Shown here one piece after another: positions 2,058 to 9,746 of a DNA stretch of 64,000 nucleotides. The DNA lies in contig OZ244999.1 of the NCBI GenBank assembly GCA_965223265.1, positions 7,360,001 to 7,424,000 of the forward strand, read 5' to 3'. Made by a program: the position numbers and the translations under genes. Below the pieces are notes generated by a model. It was not told the DNA's origin. It saw nothing but the letters and a program-made list of their open reading frames with translations, and ran no database searches. The stretch is from Planctomycetota bacterium. Lineage in GTDB: Bacteria > Planctomycetota > UBA8108 > SXIK01. Position 1 is the first letter of the stretch. Each line of letters opens with the position of its first letter.

Positions 2058-2310
2058 CTCGAGTTTGGCCATTTCGCGTCGAGCCTGCCAGCGCCAGGAG
2101 CGTCGAGGCCAAGGAGCGACGACAACGCGATCCCGCTCGGGTCGTGGCGGAGGACGGGCGCAGGCATCGGCGCTCCTGGCGTTCCCCGAAGGGCCGGACA
2201 GGAGTTTTTGAACATGCACAAGGGTTCTCAGGGTACTAAAAAGTCGAAAGGGCCTTTGAATTCCCGCGAAACTCGTCCGGCCAGGCCGGCGCGAAATGGC
2301 CAAACTCGAG
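2058..2310. mobile_element. Second non-autonomous element with perfect 21-bp terminal inverted repeats
   Basis: CTCGAGTTTGGCCATTTCGCG (2058-2078) is the exact reverse complement of 2290-2310; internal inverted repeat GCGCCAGGAGCG / CGCTCCTGGCG; CTAA on the left and GCTAAG on the right. Confidence 0.6.
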
Positions 2311-2447
2311 GCTAAGTATGTTCAACGAATGACCAACAAAGGCAGGAACTTTTCCGCCTGCCGTCATTCGACAGTCAGCGGTAGCTTTGCCTACCACCCT
2401 CCTCCGTGTAGGGCACGTCGTACAAACGACGTACAAAGCGAGCGCGA

Positions 2448-2477
2448 ACTATACCGCCACCGTGCGGAGAGCGTCAA
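2448..2477 (-). promoter_or_regulatory. sigma70-like promoter TTGACG-N18-TATAGT
   Basis: Both hexamers match the consensus at 5 of 6 positions, in an intergenic region of a GC-rich genome. Confidence 0.55.
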
Positions 2478-2508
2478 TCGAATCCTCGCATAAGAAATCC
2501 TTATCGCC

Positions 2509-3441
2509 TCATGCGCTCGGCTCTTGGTACTCCTTCGGCGTGACCCCGCGCTCGCTCATCTGCTTGAGCAGAAGCAGCGTCGCGGCCCAGTAGATCAAGC
2601 GCTGCTCGCGCCGCACCGACGGCAGCAGCCGCGTGCGATCGTGGATGGTGACGCGAACTGCGTCATCACACTCGAGAAGGGTCCACTCGACCTCGCCATC
2701 GCCACCGTCTTGCCAGATCCAATCGTGGACCAACCGACTTTCGGACACCGAAGCGACGATCCGGCTCGGCCCGAACGCCCGCGCGCCCTCGGCGCCAAAA
2801 CGGAAACCGCCATGAGCATCCGCTTCAGCGTCGTCCGACCACCAGCGCCGTAGCTGATCCGTCTCCGTCAACTTGCTCCAGATCACCCACGGAAATGTCG
2901 TCACATCGACTTCAAGCTTCAAAGCCGTGCTGTCGACGATCTGCCCGTCGAGGAGCAGTGCAGGGCGACCGGTCTCGAGATAAGTTCTCAGATTCGGGAG
3001 TGCGACCCACCACCAGTTCGGTGCGTCCGAGTCACTGAACAACCCATGAGGTCGTTCTTGAGCGGTTTGTGTCACCAGTAGCTCGGTCTGCTCCATCACT
3101 GTCGAAATCTCGTAGGACACCTCGGTGTCGACGCCGTCGACGAACCATGCGAATCGCAGTCTCTGGCCTTCTTGGCACTCTATGATTTCGAAATCTTGCC
3201 TGCGTGACTCTCTCTCCGGCGACTCCGCTGAGCGCCGGAGTACCGCCGGTGGAGCAAAGCGGTAGCACCCCCCTTGGCGGAGATCGACCTCGGCCTTCGA
3301 ACTCCACCACCGGCAGAGTTCTTCCGGAACAGTGAGCGCCTTCCAAACGCGCTGCGGCTGAATCGGAACAATCTCTTTGCGCTGCACGCTCCACGGTGCT
3401 CGTGGAGCACCGAATCGTGTCAGCTGAACAAAGTTCTCCAC
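2509..3441 (-). CDS. Tandem SRPBCC (AHSA1/START-like) domain protein
   Basis: Two repeats of the VWKALTxPEELxRWW motif (VWKALTVPEELCRWW; IWSKLTETDQLRRWW); GTG start at 3441, 5 nt after the pus10 stop. Confidence 0.8.
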   Translation of the reverse strand: MENFVQLTRFGAPRAPWSVQRKEIVPIQPQRVWKALTVPEELCRWWSSKAEVDLRQGGCYRFAPPAVLRRSAESPERESRRQDFEIIECQEGQRLRFAWFVDGVDTEVSYEISTVMEQTELLVTQTAQERPHGLFSDSDAPNWWWVALPNLRTYLETGRPALLLDGQIVDSTALKLEVDVTTFPWVIWSKLTETDQLRRWWSDDAEADAHGGFRFGAEGARAFGPSRIVASVSESRLVHDWIWQDGGDGEVEWTLLECDDAVRVTIHDRTRLLPSVRREQRLIYWAATLLLLKQMSERGVTPKEYQEPSA

Positions 3442-3445
3442 GTCG

Positions 3446-4501
3446 TTACTCCCAAGGCGGCTGCCACTGAACAGCCAAGACGTCGAGGGCGACACAATCG
3501 CACGGAATCTCAAGCGCAGTGCTGACTGAAGGGCTCGTGCGTCCGCGATCGCCGCTGATAAGTTCTTTGATGTACATTCCAGACTCGACACCAACTTCCC
3601 AGATGCCCTCGTACGGCGTGTTGCCGAGCCACCTCGACAGCTCGATGCGTCGTCGCCTTTCAACGTTTTCGCCTCGGCGCTTCATCACGCGCGCCGGCGA
3701 CAGCTGACGCACGCACGCGGAGGTGAGAGACTCAACCCGCCGCGCAGCGTCCGTCGGCGGGGAAGCGCCGAATCGAATCCATGCCCGGTACCGTTTGACG
3801 GCACGGGCTTCTTTGAGCGCACGAACCACCTGACGCCTCACCGGCACAAGTCCGAAGATTTCCGCCGTGCCGTGTGCCGCCGCGTTCACCGCGCGAGTCA
3901 ACGCATCGAGATCGAGTGTGCGCCGGTGGGGATCACGCACCTCCACGACAAACGGACGCCCATCTCCAAGCATTCGCACGTCCGTGTCCTCACGACCGAG
4001 AGCGTGAAAAAACAGTTCGCTGCCGGAAACCGCAGCGAGGAGCTGATCGCGCAGCAGCTCTTCGACGCTCGGGCCGCAGATCGTCCCCGTGTGACCGCAG
4101 CTCTCACAGCCGCGACCACGACAAAAGTGATGGACCCAGCGGCTCGCCGAAAGCCGACGAGACATCTTGCGATAGCGTCCGGCGATGAAGATCGGCGCTC
4201 GCGTCACTTCGATCCGCATGTCGTCATCGAGGTCGATGCGGACATCAGGTGTGCGGAAATCGACCACGAGACCGGGCCGCCGCGCCTCGATGAGTCGACC
4301 GAGAAGGATCTTGAGATCGCGGTACTTCGATTCGTGTTCCTCCCGAGTCGGTGCGCTCAGACGCCGAAACCCGAGGACAAAGCTGCGACACTGCGAACCT
4401 CGGAGAGCGTCGAGGATTCTTTCAGCCACGGACGCGACGTCAACGTCGTGCATCGCATCCTTGCCGTCGATTCTCTTCGCTGCATCGAGATCTTCACTCA
4501 T
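3446..4501 (-). CDS. pus10: tRNA pseudouridine synthase Pus10 family (archaeal type)
   Basis: IFIAGRYRK, CRGRGCESC, SVEELL, FHALGREDTDVRMLGDGRPFVVE (catalytic Asp), KRYRA, GMYIKELISGDRGRTSPSVS and LDVL, collinear with archaeal Pus10. Confidence 0.92.
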   Translation of the reverse strand: MSEDLDAAKRIDGKDAMHDVDVASVAERILDALRGSQCRSFVLGFRRLSAPTREEHESKYRDLKILLGRLIEARRPGLVVDFRTPDVRIDLDDDMRIEVTRAPIFIAGRYRKMSRRLSASRWVHHFCRGRGCESCGHTGTICGPSVEELLRDQLLAAVSGSELFFHALGREDTDVRMLGDGRPFVVEVRDPHRRTLDLDALTRAVNAAAHGTAEIFGLVPVRRQVVRALKEARAVKRYRAWIRFGASPPTDAARRVESLTSACVRQLSPARVMKRRGENVERRRRIELSRWLGNTPYEGIWEVGVESGMYIKELISGDRGRTSPSVSTALEIPCDCVALDVLAVQWQPPWE

Positions 4502-4689
4502 GTTTGACCTCGAGACCGTTTTTTGCCGTACGGAAACTATAGTTCACGGGAACGCTCGAACACGTCGTCGATTCACATGACACCGACATAGATTTCAACG
4601 GCGCTTCATGGTATCACTGCCAGCCGGTGGGTGCGCGAAGGGAAGTGCTTTTCTCAATCATTCCAGACAAAGAAGTGTGAGAGGATGCC

Positions 4690-5655
4690 ATGGGTCGCAT
4701 GTCTCTTCCCATCGAAACTCCGATGGGTGTTGCCGCTGGAGAATTGACTCTCAAGAATCGCCACCTCGAACTGACGATTCGTCCGGATCTTGGGTGTCAC
4801 TGGTCGCAGTTGAAGGTGTCGGCGAAGGGCCAGTGGCACGAGCTGCTCGTGCCCGCGGAACCGACGTCAAAAGGGGGCCTACGCTACGGCTCTTTTGTGA
4901 TGGCGCCCTGGTCGAATCGTATCGAGCGCGCCAGGTTTCAGTTTGCCGGCGAGTCATATCGTCTGCGTGCCAATCGTGACGACAGCACAGCAATTCACGG
5001 CGACGTCCGCTCGCGACCCTGGGAGGTCGAGAACTTCGATGGGCAGACGTTTGTCGCGACGCTCGACTCAGCTGGATTTGAAGACTTCAACTTCCCCTTC
5101 AGCGTCTCTTTCCGCTATGAACTCGAGCTGGCGCGCGAATGCATTCGCACGCGATTCACGATGGAAAACCGAGACGAGAGGGCCATACCGCTCGGTTGCG
5201 GTTTCCATCCATTCTTCCGTCGTCGTCTCTCGTCGCGTGACCGCGACGTCATCGTCGTGCTGCCGGCGCGGCGCGTCTACCCCCTCCGCAACTGCTTGCC
5301 GACCGGCGCCGCTGTCGAAGTGAGCGACCAGCGGGACCTCAGCAGCCTTGCTCCCCTCGGGAATCGAGACCTCGACGACTGTTTCACCGACTTTGAGACC
5401 GGGACTTTCCGACTCTTCTACCCGGGCACTGGGCTTGAGGTGCGCCTCGACGTCGATCCGGCGTTCGGCCATGCCGTGGTCTACGCACCACCCCACTCGA
5501 CGACCGGTTCGGGATTCGTTGCCGTCGAGCCGGTCAGTCACGTGACCAACGGCGTCAATCTGCTCGCCTCCGGCTGGAAAGACACCGGTGTTGCCGTCAT
5601 CGATCCCGGCGCCACCTGGAGCGGCAGTTGGGCTCTCTCTGTCGGCGACATATAA
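4690..5655 (+). CDS. Aldose 1-epimerase (GalM-like) family protein
   Basis: APWSNRI, AIHG, GFHPFF, LDDCF and FVAVEPVS motifs. Confidence 0.88.
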   Translation: MGRMSLPIETPMGVAAGELTLKNRHLELTIRPDLGCHWSQLKVSAKGQWHELLVPAEPTSKGGLRYGSFVMAPWSNRIERARFQFAGESYRLRANRDDSTAIHGDVRSRPWEVENFDGQTFVATLDSAGFEDFNFPFSVSFRYELELARECIRTRFTMENRDERAIPLGCGFHPFFRRRLSSRDRDVIVVLPARRVYPLRNCLPTGAAVEVSDQRDLSSLAPLGNRDLDDCFTDFETGTFRLFYPGTGLEVRLDVDPAFGHAVVYAPPHSTTGSGFVAVEPVSHVTNGVNLLASGWKDTGVAVIDPGATWSGSWALSVGDI

Positions 5656-5822
5656 CGACATGCAGAAGGCACACGCGGCTTGACAGCCTGTTGAGTTGAG
5701 TCCGGCCACATTCGGCGTTGTCGGAAGGAGTCAGAGCTGGAAGCTCCGGGCACTCCGTGGCGAAGCCGCCGCTTGGACGTTTCGGAAAACTCAAAAGAAG
5801 TCCGAAAAAGTCGATTTCTTGC

Positions 5823-5850
5823 TCAAGGGCTGGCGCGAACCAGTCGATAA
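5823..5850 (+). promoter_or_regulatory. sigma28 (FliA/WhiG)-like promoter TCAAG-N15-GTCGATAA
   Basis: Close to the TAAA/TCAAG-N15-GCCGATAA consensus, with correct spacing and an A-rich upstream tract. Confidence 0.55.
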
Positions 5851-5856
5851 CACCAA

Positions 5857-5988
5857 CGCGAAGCCCAAAACTGAGGAGTGAGGGCCTCGCTCGAAAGCCT
5901 TTAGAGCAGAAGTGATGAGACACGCCGGGCGGGTCGTCCGGCGGCAGAAGAGCGAAGCCCGCGGCAAAACGTCGCGGGCGTCTCTCTT
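5857..5988 (+). ncRNA. Candidate sigma28-dependent small RNA
   Basis: Follows the sigma28-like promoter; three hairpins, the last a 9-bp GC stem (5957-5979) with a pyrimidine tail; no credible plus-strand gene. Confidence 0.35.
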
Positions 5989-6101
5989 GAACGCGAGAGA
6001 CGCAGGGGGTTGCAGCCGCCGCGATGGCTGTGCTCTTGGTGCGACAGCTCCGTCCACGCCGCCGACTAGCCAGAGGCGCCCACCCCAGAGGCTGCTCGCC
6101 G

Positions 6102-6362
6102 TTAGGAGGGGTCGACCGCACCGTCCCACGCGAGCGGAAAGCGCATGAGCTCCTTCCACTCGATCGTCGCGCGACCGACAAGCTCCAGCTTGCCGACAAG
6201 GCTGCGCCCCGTCACTGGGTGGAAGAGAGCGTTGATCTTCTCCCAGCGGGCGTCGGTCGGGCGCAGGGGAAGTGGCTCATCAAAGCCATGGTCCGAGCCG
6301 TCGAGGTAGGGCCGAAAGTCGGCGATTTGTCCATCTGGGGTTTCGTAGATATAGAGTTCCAT
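6102..6362 (-). CDS. Small hypothetical protein (86 aa)
   Basis: ATG start and globular-looking composition, unlike the Arg/Ala-rich shadow ORFs; no family recognised. Confidence 0.5.
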   Translation of the reverse strand: MELYIYETPDGQIADFRPYLDGSDHGFDEPLPLRPTDARWEKINALFHPVTGRSLVGKLELVGRATIEWKELMRFPLAWDGAVDPS

Positions 6363-6568
6363 CGCTGTTCGCTCTTGCGGGCGTCGTGGTTAGACGGATC
6401 ACGGCACGCGGCGGCGGCCGTAGGTCGAGGCGAAATCCTACCTCAATGTCGCCCAAAAATGGCGCGCAAAAAACGCTGCTGCGCGCATCGACTGACGCGC
6501 CGACATGCTGGCGACGGGGCAGACGCGATCGGACTCGGTGCCCGGGCAGCCGGGCCGCTTCTCGCAGA

Positions 6569-6841
6569 CTAACGCCGCTGACGCACCACGCGCCGCCCAT
6601 TGCGGCCAAGCCGTTCCCGGCGTGCCGGTGCGGCGCGAGCCTGTGGAGTTCTTTCGGCCGGCGCCACAGTTGGCGGACGCGTCGTGTGCGCGCGAGGCTC
6701 CGACTGAGCGTACGCCGGCGCATCCCCGCCGCCGATCATGCCCAGCGCCAAGCACGAGAAAAGAAAGAGCGCCAGAGCGTTCACCATGCTGAACGTCACC
6801 ACCCGATGGGCGAGAGTCCAGTCGCGAAGTTTCGAAAACAT
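6569..6841 (-). CDS. Small single-pass membrane or secreted hypothetical protein
   Basis: GAGGAGG ribosome-binding site before ATG 6841; hydrophobic segment VVTFSMVNALALFLFSCLALGMIG and a Pro/Arg-rich tail. Confidence 0.6.
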   Translation of the reverse strand: MFSKLRDWTLAHRVVTFSMVNALALFLFSCLALGMIGGGDAPAYAQSEPRAHTTRPPTVAPAERTPQARAAPARRERLGRNGRRVVRQRR

Positions 6842-7442
6842 TCGAGAGCCCTCCTCTTCCCCCTGAGCGGTTCGGTTTCTCCGCCGAGCGACTGCCTCGA
6901 CAGGCCGCTGCAGGGCCAGAAAAGTATAGGAGGGAGAAGCCCGGCCGACAAACTCGGCCCTGTCAGAGAGTCGGCCTCGAATCACAACCCCTTGCGTCCC
7001 AAAGTGTTGCGCTTGTGGCGCACTGGCGTTGTAGCGTTGTCCACACCTGGGACACTCTGGTCACGTGACCAGTCATGACGAACACGGTTCGGACCACCCA
7101 CAGGTCCGACCACGCAGTCCCGTCGGGCGGGTGCCCTGGAGGAGCGTGTGGTGAGCCTTTGGAGAACCGAGACGCAGGGCTCACGCGTCGCTCTCTTCTC
7201 TTTTCGCGGCGCTCCGCACTGCCGCGGTCTCTGCGCCGGCCCGGGCCTCGGCCCCTCCGGATTCCGTTCCGTCTCACGGGACAAGCCGCTGCCGCACCGA
7301 ACGCCTTGCCGACACTGGCGCCGCCCCCACAAAACAGCGACACTGGTAGGATTCCTCCAAAATGCAAACACGCGCCCGTAGCCAGCGGCCGCGTCGAGGC
7401 GAACGGGCAAGAAAGGGCCCGCAGACCCAAACCCACCGACAC

Positions 7443-8130: not shown

Positions 8131-9351
8131 TCAACACCACGGTTGGATCCGCACGCTCGTCACCTGAAGATAACGCTCGCTCGGTTCGCAGACTGCCGTG
8201 GGGTAGTCGACGGGTAAACCACCAGTGCTGAGCACCGCGCATGACCGCGCGTCGCCGGCGAACGCAGCGTCGAGATGTTTCGTCAGCCGTGGTCCGCTAC
8301 GCGAGTTCATCGCCAGCCACAGGATGCCGCCGCGCTCGGCAGGAAGGAGGTCGGCAGCGAGACGCATCAACTTCGGATAATCGCTCTTCGCACTCCAGCG
8401 CGACGGTTTCGCCTGAGAAAAGGAGGGTGGATCGATGAGGATCAGATCGAAGCGAGTTTCGTCGGCGCGCGCACGCTCGAGAAAGCGAATCACGTCCGAT
8501 GTCACGAACTCGAAGGCTCCCTCGGCTCCCCCGGAACCAGAGTCGACGTCCACGCCAGCGAGCCGAAAGTTCTTCTGCGCCCAGGCATGTACACCGGCCG
8601 CGAGGTCAACGCTCGTCACACTCGTCGCACCACCGAGCGCCGCCACCAAGGACAGGCTACCAGTGTAGCTAAAGAGGTTGAGCACGCGTTGACCGCGGCT
8701 GCATGCGCGCAGCGCCAGGCGATGCTCACGCATGTCTGTGAACAGCCCCACGTTCAAGCCGCCGAGCGGGTGGATCACGTAGCGAACGCCGCTCTCGAGC
8801 ACCTCAAGCTCTTGTGGCGGCTGTGCGCCGATCACTTCCTGCTCCAATTTACCCGCCTTCGGAACCGCCCGCGGTCTCACTTTGATCACAACGCCGCGTA
8901 GCGCTTCGTCGTCGATGAGAGCGGCGGCGAGTTCACGCCCAAGCGCTTTCAGACCGCGCGACGCGACGTAGAGAACCGCGAACTCTGAAAAGACATCGAC
9001 CGCGAACCCTGGCAGCTCGTCGCCCGCGCCGTGAACGAGACGGTAGGCGGTTGTGGCGGCGGAAGGCACCCCAAGTCGCTCGCGCCAGGCGCGCGCACGC
9101 CGCGCGCGCGCGTGAAAGAAACGTACGTCGAATCGCTCCTCGTACTCTCGAGAGAGGATGCGCAGCACACCGTTTTCCGCGTCGACGACCGCCATGCCGA
9201 CGGTCTCGGAGTGGCGGTCGAGAAGCTGCAGCGGCCGCCCCGCATCGAGCGTCGGACCGGCGCTCGTCAGCTCGTCGAGTCGCACCACACTATGACCGTC
9301 TCGAACGCGCGCGGCAGCGCGATCAGGCAGATGCAGGGCGCGGGGAGGCAT
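8131..9351 (-). CDS. Class I SAM-dependent rRNA methyltransferase (RlmI/RlmK-like)
   Basis: AYRLVHGAGDELPGFAVD, GLFTDMREHR, VLNLFSYTGSLS and FDLILIDPPSF. Confidence 0.88.
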   Translation of the reverse strand: MPPRALHLPDRAAARVRDGHSVVRLDELTSAGPTLDAGRPLQLLDRHSETVGMAVVDAENGVLRILSREYEERFDVRFFHARARRARAWRERLGVPSAATTAYRLVHGAGDELPGFAVDVFSEFAVLYVASRGLKALGRELAAALIDDEALRGVVIKVRPRAVPKAGKLEQEVIGAQPPQELEVLESGVRYVIHPLGGLNVGLFTDMREHRLALRACSRGQRVLNLFSYTGSLSLVAALGGATSVTSVDLAAGVHAWAQKNFRLAGVDVDSGSGGAEGAFEFVTSDVIRFLERARADETRFDLILIDPPSFSQAKPSRWSAKSDYPKLMRLAADLLPAERGGILWLAMNSRSGPRLTKHLDAAFAGDARSCAVLSTGGLPVDYPTAVCEPSERYLQVTSVRIQPWC

Positions 9352-9746
9352 CGCGCGGACTCTCCCAGAAGGCTGTCTCAGATGACGACAGAGGACCGGC
9401 CTCCGAGTCAAAACCCGAGTTGTGGAGCCCGATCAGGCAGCAGGGATCGCTTGCGGCGTGCCGCGACGTGATCGCGCGGCACATTCGTGCATTGCCCGCA
9501 ACCGGGTGGGCGGCGGCTAGTGTTTCTTGCCCCAAGCTCGGTCGCGGCCACGCGAACCGCGGCGGCCGTGATTGGCCTTCTTGCTACGCCACTTGAACTT
9601 AAAGATTCTGCGCTTCCGTGCCATGGAAAGTCCTTTTCGAGAGATGACCGAAGCTCCTCTTCTACCCGATGGCGGTGAAGCTTGGCAAGGTTCTCGTTGG
9701 ATCGTCTCCTGGCGCGCTCACCGCGTCGCGGCAGGCGACCACCACT

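Follow-up and report, generated by a model that had tools for sequence, protein, structure and literature searches.

Introduction

In the available parts of two papers (PMC6380271, PMC7912444), the tRNA pseudouridine synthase Pus10 is described as confined to Archaea and Eukarya and absent from bacteria, and pseudouridine at tRNA position 54 (Psi54) as absent from bacteria. The determinants of activity were mapped in the enzyme of Methanocaldococcus jannaschii (MjPus10). According to the part of PMC3753934 that was available, Psi54 formation by MjPus10 needs the forefinger segments ffl1 (C227-R231) and ffl2 (C238-V249), Tyr339 and Leu440, and needs His376-Arg377 less. When ffl1 or ffl2 was deleted, Psi54 was lost or nearly lost and pseudouridine at position 55 (Psi55) was kept. 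The same source gives the roles of the active-site residues (an Arg and the catalytic Asp) and of the thumb His-Arg. It also describes the Pus10 of Pyrococcus furiosus, which forms Psi55 only, lacks ffl1 and ffl2 and reads Asn-Ser in the thumb.

The gene analysed here lies at 3446..4501 on the minus strand of a 64,000-nucleotide stretch of the chromosome of a Planctomycetota bacterium (assembly GCA_965223265.1, contig OZ244999.1, positions 7,360,001 to 7,424,000; the window). Coordinates are those of the window unless a genome position is given. A first-pass annotation of the letters alone had called the gene a Pus10, had described the family as classically archaeal and eukaryotic, in agreement with the available text of PMC6380271 and PMC7912444, and had proposed that the gene came by an old transfer from archaea and possibly replaces TruB or introduces an unusual modification at position 54. 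The gene was found to be a genuine Pus10 and to belong to a phylum-wide bacterial lineage that alternates with TruB, which is what is new here. TruB is regarded as universal among bacteria.

Results

Identification of the gene

The open reading frame (ORF) has 351 codons and a TAA stop, begins with the ATG at 4501 and is preceded by GAGG 9-12 nt upstream. In Pfam, Pus10_C (PF21238) matched residues 105-344 (E 2.6e-53, 181.4 bits, threshold 27). The NCBIfam equivalog TIGR01213, 'tRNA pseudouridine(54/55) synthase Pus10', was passed with 263.1 bits (cut-off 200). No TruB family model matched the ORF in the Pfam and NCBIfam searches, and no TruB_N domain was found. A search of the PDB sequences at E<=0.01 gave human PUS10 (2v9k, E 1.3e-25) as the single match. 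An AlphaFold2 model was built from 31 homologues and had a mean predicted local distance difference test score of 91.2 and a predicted template modelling (TM) score of 0.84. The best structure found with Foldseek was again 2v9k (E 9.2e-29, TM 0.78). With VIA-align, model residues 1..351 were placed on residues 31..526 of the 2v9k chain (Z 28.7, root mean square deviation 3.3, 331/351 residues aligned), and by this whole-chain alignment the model has the two-domain fold of Pus10, accessory plus catalytic. The runners-up Cbf5, TruB and TruA gave Z 12-15 (best 14.6) and covered model residues 101-351 only. The ORF is therefore a genuine and intact Pus10 in a bacterial chromosome. The first-pass annotation had claimed as much and had proposed a profile search as a check; the scores of TIGR01213 and PF21238, the structural match and the lack of any TruB match all agree with it.

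The catalytic domain (3449..4198, minus strand, residues 102-351) carries the PF21238 match and the structural matches to Cbf5, TruB and TruA. It is preceded by a THUMP-like N-terminal accessory domain (4199..4444, minus strand, residues about 20-101), on which the Pfam model Pus10_THUMP_arc scored 13.5 bits at residues 26-91, below its cut-off of 28. The ORF was aligned with archaeal and Planctomycetota proteins (alignment A1, 23 sequences). The archaeal rows have an early CxxC and a second Cys pair, the zinc ribbon; no such pair was found in the ORF or in the 12 other rows of the short clade. These zinc-binding Cys pairs, known from archaeal and human Pus10, are a variable accessory part, outside the catalytic definition of Pus10. 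The shortened N-terminus without Cys pairs, noted earlier for this protein of 351 residues, was thus seen again in A1. A further reduction was observed in a Planctomycetota subclade of 15 rows (L120, L123-L135 and L138, of families f48, f85, f78 and f10; support 100), whose rows matched the alignment profile only at its positions about 95-348. Those of its frames that have a clear start are about 260-300 residues long. The proteins of this subclade are catalytic-domain-only forms of Pus10 with no THUMP-like domain, and they occur in genomes without TruB.

Catalytic motifs and RNA-pinching loops

The catalytic motif GREDTDVRMLG (3965..3997, minus strand, residues 169-179) contains R170, D172 and D174, which we take, from what is generally held of the family, to be active-site residues, D172 being the catalytic Asp. 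In A1, G169, R170, E171 and D172 were invariant (23/23), as were Y238, K312 and L339, and D174 was kept in at least 90% of the rows. The second motif, YIKELISGDRGRTSPS (3527..3574, minus strand, residues 310-325), has invariant Y310, K312, E313 and D318, and its I311-K312 match the active-site Ile-Lys pair. R170, D172, D174, Y238, I311-K312 and L339 are spaced as residues 273, 275, 277, 339, 412-413 and 440 of MjPus10, in the numbering given in the available part of PMC3753934.

The forefinger loop with its putative zinc knuckle (4064..4132, minus strand, H124-V146) reads H124-x2-C127-x4-C132-x2-C135, whereas the aligned archaeal proteins read C-x2-C-x4-C-x2-C. Histidine is a possible zinc ligand, and H124 is a putative one. 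The same variant was found in 11 of the 12 other rows of the 13-row subclade to which the ORF belongs, and Cys is kept in a locus of the same order (L006) and in the Planctomycetota rows outside the subclade. The thumb loop reads K274-R275-R276 (3674..3682, minus strand), where archaeal rows read H-R-R. When the motifs of 57 Planctomycetota rows were surveyed, Pus10 from genomes with TruB did not differ from Pus10 from genomes without it in the forefinger, catalytic, thumb or YIKEL motifs. All the motifs listed in the first-pass annotation (GREDxDVRMLG, the YIKELISGDRGRTSPS block, HxxC-x4-CxxC and KRR) were recovered from the translation.

Distribution and phylogeny of bacterial Pus10

Homologues were sought among 5.8 billion proteins, and the 8000 candidates with most words in common with the query were scored; 672 of these were homologues of the ORF. 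About 30 clusters lay at 45-56% identity, were 314-398 residues long and carried the catalytic Pfam domain only. Beneath these clusters there was a gap in identity down to about 41%, where longer proteins with the archaeal THUMP domain start. The nearest loci in named genomes came from Planctomycetia and from metagenome-assembled genomes (MAGs) of Planctomycetota. Within the host's own class, 14 of 41 relatives had Pus10 over the cut-off. Across the phylum, 49 of 301 genomes had it, and 30 of these were among the 191 of high quality.

A quick tree was made with 99 rows (57 Planctomycetota loci, 33 of the 75 usable named loci and nine database proteins). All 41 archaeal or other rows lay to the same side of a starred branch, and among the Planctomycetota rows the groups corresponded to host family codes. 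In a careful tree of 65 rows, 34 Planctomycetota loci and P0039 were split from the 30 others with ultrafast bootstrap 100 and a Shimodaira-Hasegawa-like approximate likelihood ratio of 98, and the split was present in 200/200 bootstrap trees. Both trees are unrooted and give no donor or direction for the transfer from archaea that the first-pass annotation had proposed. Their archaea are mainly Bathyarchaeia, Thermoplasmatota and Methanobacteriota, with two Asgard rows; eukaryotes, Methanococci and Thermococci are left out. Within this sampling, the unrooted trees point to Planctomycetota Pus10 as one old group that is not nested in the archaea. Planctomycetota Pus10 is old and vertically inherited, its rows following the host families. 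The age proposed in the first-pass annotation is thus confirmed by a phylum-wide group with a split bootstrap of 100 that clusters by host family.

Two sequences labelled as belonging to other bacterial phyla were placed among the archaeal rows, both with the full archaeal Pus10 architecture: L064, a MAG contig labelled Acidobacteriota that sits among Bathyarchaeia, and P0065, a protein labelled Bipolaricaulota. They are separate cases, probably recent transfers or binning errors.

The full-text literature covered, which did not include supplements or Fitzek et al. 2018, contained no report of a Planctomycetota Pus10 or of TruB displacement, and its single match for Pus10 together with Planctomycet was unrelated. 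Databases already name such proteins Pus10 (JGI names).

Pus10 and TruB across genomes

TruB was searched in the phylum with TIGR00431 at E<=1e-20 and in the own class at E<=0.001. The search listings were cross-tabulated by hand, by genome and family code, so that the counts carry no correction for the species tree. TruB was found in 145/301 Planctomycetota genomes (101/191 high-quality ones). Both enzymes were present in three of the 301 genomes (G000, which is the host genome, G081 and G107), Pus10 only in 46, TruB only in 142 and neither in 110. Among the 191 high-quality genomes these numbers were 1, 29, 100 and 61. In the phylum sample, TruB therefore accompanied Pus10 in 3 of the 49 Pus10 genomes and was present in 142 of the 252 genomes without Pus10. 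In the own class (41 genomes), four genomes had both (G000, G012, G014 and G016), 10 had Pus10 only, 27 had TruB only and none had neither.

In 16 of the 18 host families with Pus10, TruB was found in no sampled genome; one family (f78) has Pus10 and TrmFO and no TruB. The state switches between genera inside families f1 and f2. In f1, TruB alone is present in G001 and Pus10 alone in G002, and the host genome has both. In f2, TruB alone is present in all 10 genomes of genus g5, both enzymes in g9 and g10, and Pus10 alone in g11. A control search for TruB_N at E<=0.01 in five well-assembled Pus10 genomes, of which one is a single contig, gave a match in none. Pus10 and TruB thus have a complementary distribution and are alternatives in Planctomycetota. 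Such repeated sorting is expected of two enzymes that serve one need, and it is the main argument for Psi55 as the product of this clade. Judged from gene content, Pus10 probably does the job of TruB in many Planctomycetota.

TruB in the host genome

The host genome has an intact TruB at G000:C1:8435883-8436953 (247 bits, TruB_N and TruB_C_2 domains, GTLDP motif). In a TruB tree of 30 rows it was placed within an order-level group (support 100, 14 rows), as vertical descent predicts, on an end branch of 0.87, the longest of the 30. It is not in an operon of the nusA-infB type. Its flanking genes include DUF1501 and DUF1549/DUF1553 proteins, which are typical of planctomycetes and, like the nearest Pus10 loci, place the host genome in Planctomycetota. 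The host genome is one of the rare cases with both enzymes, and TruB is not replaced there. The proposal that Pus10 replaces TruB accordingly fails for the genome for which it was made and is borne out for the phylum, where only 3/49 Pus10 genomes have TruB.

Position 54 and the U54/U55 substrate

A T-arm heuristic was applied to 60 predicted tRNA genes of the host genome; U54 was present in 59 and U55 in 60. For TrmFO, the best score in the host genome was 52 bits (cut-off 429), in a 620-residue frame that is presumably an MnmG-like paralogue. For the TrmA or RumA-type 5-methyluridine (m5U) methylases, 21-23 bits were obtained, under the cut-off, and TrmY (PF04013) gave no match. Of the genes that the first-pass annotation had proposed to look for, truB is thus present, and trmFO, trmA and trmY had no match over the cut-off.

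Segments H124-R128 and C135-V146 of the ORF lie at the exact offsets of ffl1 and ffl2 from the catalytic Asp, and the loop has the same length as in MjPus10. On this spacing they would be the counterparts of ffl1 and ffl2. The further Psi54 determinants are found as Y238, L339 and K274-R275. The ORF is thus possibly compatible with Psi54 formation.

TrmFO was over the cut-off in 0/41 class relatives and 10/301 phylum genomes, and PF05958 was found in 2/41 and 77/301. No anticorrelation of Pus10 with the enzymes that make m5U at position 54 (m5U54) was seen: PF05958 was commoner in genomes with Pus10 (23/49) than in those without (54/252), and TrmFO and Pus10 occurred together in G173 and G312. 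Missing m5U54 enzymes do not predict Pus10, because the whole class is without TrmFO, and nearly without PF05958, irrespective of Pus10. The phyletic pattern gives the idea of Psi54 no support. Since the known U54 methylases are rare in the phylum, U54 may be unmethylated, or modified by another enzyme, in most Planctomycetota.

Outside the window, at G000:C1:5388119-5389466, 10 tRNA genes lie close together (Glu, Glu, Leu, Leu, Ser, Ser, Arg, Gln, Trp and others). This array duplicates isoacceptors that are present elsewhere in the host genome, and it may be a tRNA island of mobile or phage origin.

Locus and assembly integrity

The host genome is one contig of 9,179,496 bases. In 4/4 public runs (two samples of one study, which is possibly also the source of the assembly), a single contig of 9.2-9.6 kb spanned positions 2288-7000 of the window, including Pus10 and both its neighbours, with 0 differences. 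The integrity of the contig, which the first-pass annotation had marked for checking, is thus supported by contigs from four runs that bridge the gene. RNA runs were looked for as well, and none was listed. The guanine-plus-cytosine (GC) content of the two 2-kb bins with Pus10 was 0.610 and 0.600, within a window range of 0.569-0.659 and beside a genome mean of 60.8%. The neighbours of Pus10 include DUF2203, TPR, AHSA1/SRPBCC, aldose 1-epimerase, PUA-SAM methyltransferase and LysR genes. These domains and the GC bins agree with the earlier description of ordinary bacterial neighbours of like base composition.

The aldose 1-epimerase gene (4690..5655, plus strand, PF01263 E 6.6e-31) is divergent from Pus10. 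The 188-bp region between them (4502..4689) is the presumed location of the Pus10 promoter. No sigma-70-like site was found in it; the sole nearby match, at 4443-4416, is inside the Pus10 gene, and a promoter and terminator scan around Pus10 gave nothing informative beyond the shuffle expectation. On the other side, a gene for a two-domain AHSA1/SRPBCC protein (2509..3441, minus strand, PF08327 E 7.6e-20 in two stretches) has an in-frame GTG at 3441, 4 nt past the Pus10 stop, and the two genes are therefore probably co-transcribed. When the other 56 Planctomycetota Pus10 loci were searched by tblastn, the AHSA1 gene was beside Pus10 in 0/56, and the epimerase adjoined Pus10 in 1/56, that of the family-level relative G002 (L009); no other part of the neighbourhood was conserved.

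Two other features of the window were recorded. Positions 1868-2317 are a dispersed high-copy repeat (437 high-scoring segment pairs by blastn against the host genome), covered by about 210-296 copies at 1868-2067 and by about 57-89 at 2068-2317. Contigs assembled from short reads end at this repeat, where the depth rises to hundreds or thousands. A 208-residue ORF at 1677-2303 overlaps this repeat and is probably not a gene. At 8131-9411 (minus strand), 3.6 kb from Pus10, there is a gene for a PUA-domain S-adenosylmethionine-dependent methyltransferase (Methyltrans_SAM and PUA_3), RlmI-like by its domains.

Discussion

Proposed function and points against it

The most likely function of the ORF is that of a TruB-equivalent T-loop Psi55 synthase, possibly forming Psi54 as well. 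A probability of about 70% is given to the reading that it is an active stand-alone T-loop tRNA pseudouridine synthase of the Pus10 type, from an old and vertically inherited Planctomycetota group that is mostly the functional alternative of TruB, and that in this host it overlaps or shares work with TruB. Which positions it modifies, and how it may divide the work with TruB, is inferred. The N-terminal THUMP-like domain would hold the acceptor end of the tRNA, and the catalytic domain would pinch the T-arm with its forefinger and thumb loops, so that Asp172 could isomerize U55 and possibly U54 too. In the host genome, the two enzymes would overlap or share work.

Several observations weigh against this. 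The 110/301 genomes with neither enzyme (61/191 among the high-quality ones) include G071, a complete genome in a single contig of 4.0 Mb. Genomes of this phylum that lack Pus10 can thus lack a known Psi55 synthase as well, and complementarity alone is no proof of equal function; the gene content indicates that a known Psi55 synthase is dispensable, or otherwise replaced, in parts of the phylum. Five of these genomes (G071, G066, G052, G054 and G046) were inspected for a hidden substitute, and none had TruB_N or Pus10_C over the cut-off. In three of the five there were 3-5 genes of the RluA/RsuA type, compared with 8 in the host genome, and no candidate substitute emerges from them. Related genomes are non-independent samples. 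The TruB threshold used for the phylum was strict, and weaker copies can be discounted only for the 41 relatives and for 10 genomes that were inspected manually. In the host itself the intact TruB means that Pus10 is not needed for Psi55. Lastly, in the genome comparison no other form with an N-terminal domain has a TIGR01213 score as low as that of the host Pus10 (262 bits), whose end branch is also long (0.75).

Alternative explanations

The presence of an intact TruB in the host is also the starting point of a different explanation, in which TruB forms Psi55 and Pus10 forms Psi54 only, on all or on selected tRNAs, giving an archaeal-style Psi54-Psi55 T-loop. U54 has no known competitor there, since TrmFO, TrmA and RumA-type enzymes were not found; the forefinger has its full length with ffl1 and ffl2 spaced as in MjPus10, the Tyr and Leu for Psi54 are kept, and human PUS10 makes Psi54 beside TRUB1 according to the available part of PMC7912444. 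The pattern across the clade, however, favours Psi55. Pus10 does not avoid the m5U enzymes in the phylum (PF05958 and the two TrmFO genomes above), the class lacks TrmFO and nearly lacks PF05958 whether or not Pus10 is present, the thumb His is replaced by Lys, and no TrmY was found. Such a division of labour is conceivable and was judged clearly less probable than overlap with TruB. It is unlikely that Pus10 acts on another substrate (rRNA, tmRNA or mRNA) or mainly as an RNA chaperone, with only an indirect link to TruB. That 110 of the 301 genomes manage without both enzymes would fit, as would the loss of the whole domain thought to bind tRNA in the 15-row subclade and the missing zinc ribbon of the ORF. 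The catalytic and RNA-pinching elements are nevertheless all conserved, and for Pus10 the available parts of PMC7912444, PMC3753934 and PMC6380271 name only U54 and U55 of the tRNA T-loop. The presence of Pus10 or TruB in 41/41 genomes of the own class is hard to explain unless there is one shared need.

The low TIGR01213 score, the end branch of 0.75, the change of thumb H to K and the end branch of the host TruB, itself the longest of its tree, could also be signs of a redundant gene that is about to be lost, its frame open but its constraint relaxed since TruB covers its function. This was considered quite improbable, because the frame has no stops, every invariant residue is kept, the AlphaFold2 model is confident and three more genomes of the order keep both enzymes; the long branches may merely reflect sparse sampling of close relatives. 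Contamination, a chimeric assembly or a recent horizontal transfer would agree with the absence of Pus10 from bacteria stated in the available text of PMC6380271 and PMC7912444. On the sequence evidence, these were rejected as hardly credible: the genome is a single contig, contigs from four runs bridge the gene and its neighbours with 0 differences, the GC content of Pus10 resembles that of its surroundings, the closest relatives, at 45-56% identity, are all Planctomycetota, the divergent epimerase neighbour is common to G002 and the tree follows the host families.

Significance

The preferred reading, a Psi55 synthase that mostly stands in for TruB, places the interest less in the single gene than in the phylum-wide alternation, a clear natural case of the replacement of one enzyme family by another for a tRNA modification that ranks among the most conserved. 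TruB is used as a bacterial marker gene. About half of the Planctomycetota genomes sampled gave no TruB match, which would depress their completeness estimates. The lineage offers organisms in which bacterial Psi54 and the interchangeability of Pus10 and TruB could be tested, including the proposed chaperone role of TruB, and the function of the THUMP and zinc module is testable because natural truncations exist. A bolder view may be advanced tentatively. TruB would have been displaced repeatedly in Planctomycetota by an ancient bacterial Pus10 whose depth matches that of the phylum and which is a sister group of the archaeal Pus10 sampled, without being nested in it; the carriers, the host among them, would have an archaeal-style Psi54-Psi55 T-loop, and the host genome would be an intermediate of displacement. 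If this were true, Psi54 would for the first time be known from the tRNA of a bacterium.

Comparison with known systems

With archaeal Pus10, such as that of M. jannaschii, the ORF shares the GREDxD catalytic domain, the core of Tyr, Ile-Lys and Leu, a full-length forefinger with a putative zinc knuckle, an Arg-rich thumb, a THUMP-like domain ahead of the catalytic one and a TIGR01213 score over the cut-off. It differs in lacking the N-terminal zinc ribbon and in being about 60-90 residues shorter (351 versus 405-470), in the His instead of Cys at the first forefinger ligand position, in a K-R-R thumb with one extra residue, in falling below the Pfam threshold for the archaeal THUMP domain and in its host, which is bacterial and has TruB as well.

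Human PUS10 (2v9k) is matched by the model over the whole predicted chain (331 residues), and it likewise co-exists with a Psi55 synthase of the TruB family, as stated in the available part of PMC7912444. Its identity to the ORF is, however, 21-25%, it is about 180 residues longer and, in the alignment, it is without the 12-residue zinc-knuckle part of the forefinger; ffl2 is given as absent in the available part of PMC3753934.

Bacterial TruB probably makes the same product, Psi55, judging by the way the two alternate among Planctomycetota genomes, and the catalytic domain of the model resembles TruB structures in fold (Z 13-14). The two are nonetheless separate families, with no sequence-level relation in the family searches; TruB has a PUA-type C-terminal domain and the ORF an N-terminal THUMP-like domain. 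For family f78, the model is P. furiosus, in which Pus10 makes only Psi55 beside a RumA-type m5U54 methylase (available parts of PMC7912444 and PMC3753934). The P. furiosus enzyme differs from the ORF in having neither ffl1 nor ffl2 and in its Asn-Ser thumb, whereas the ORF keeps both segments and reads K-R in the thumb.

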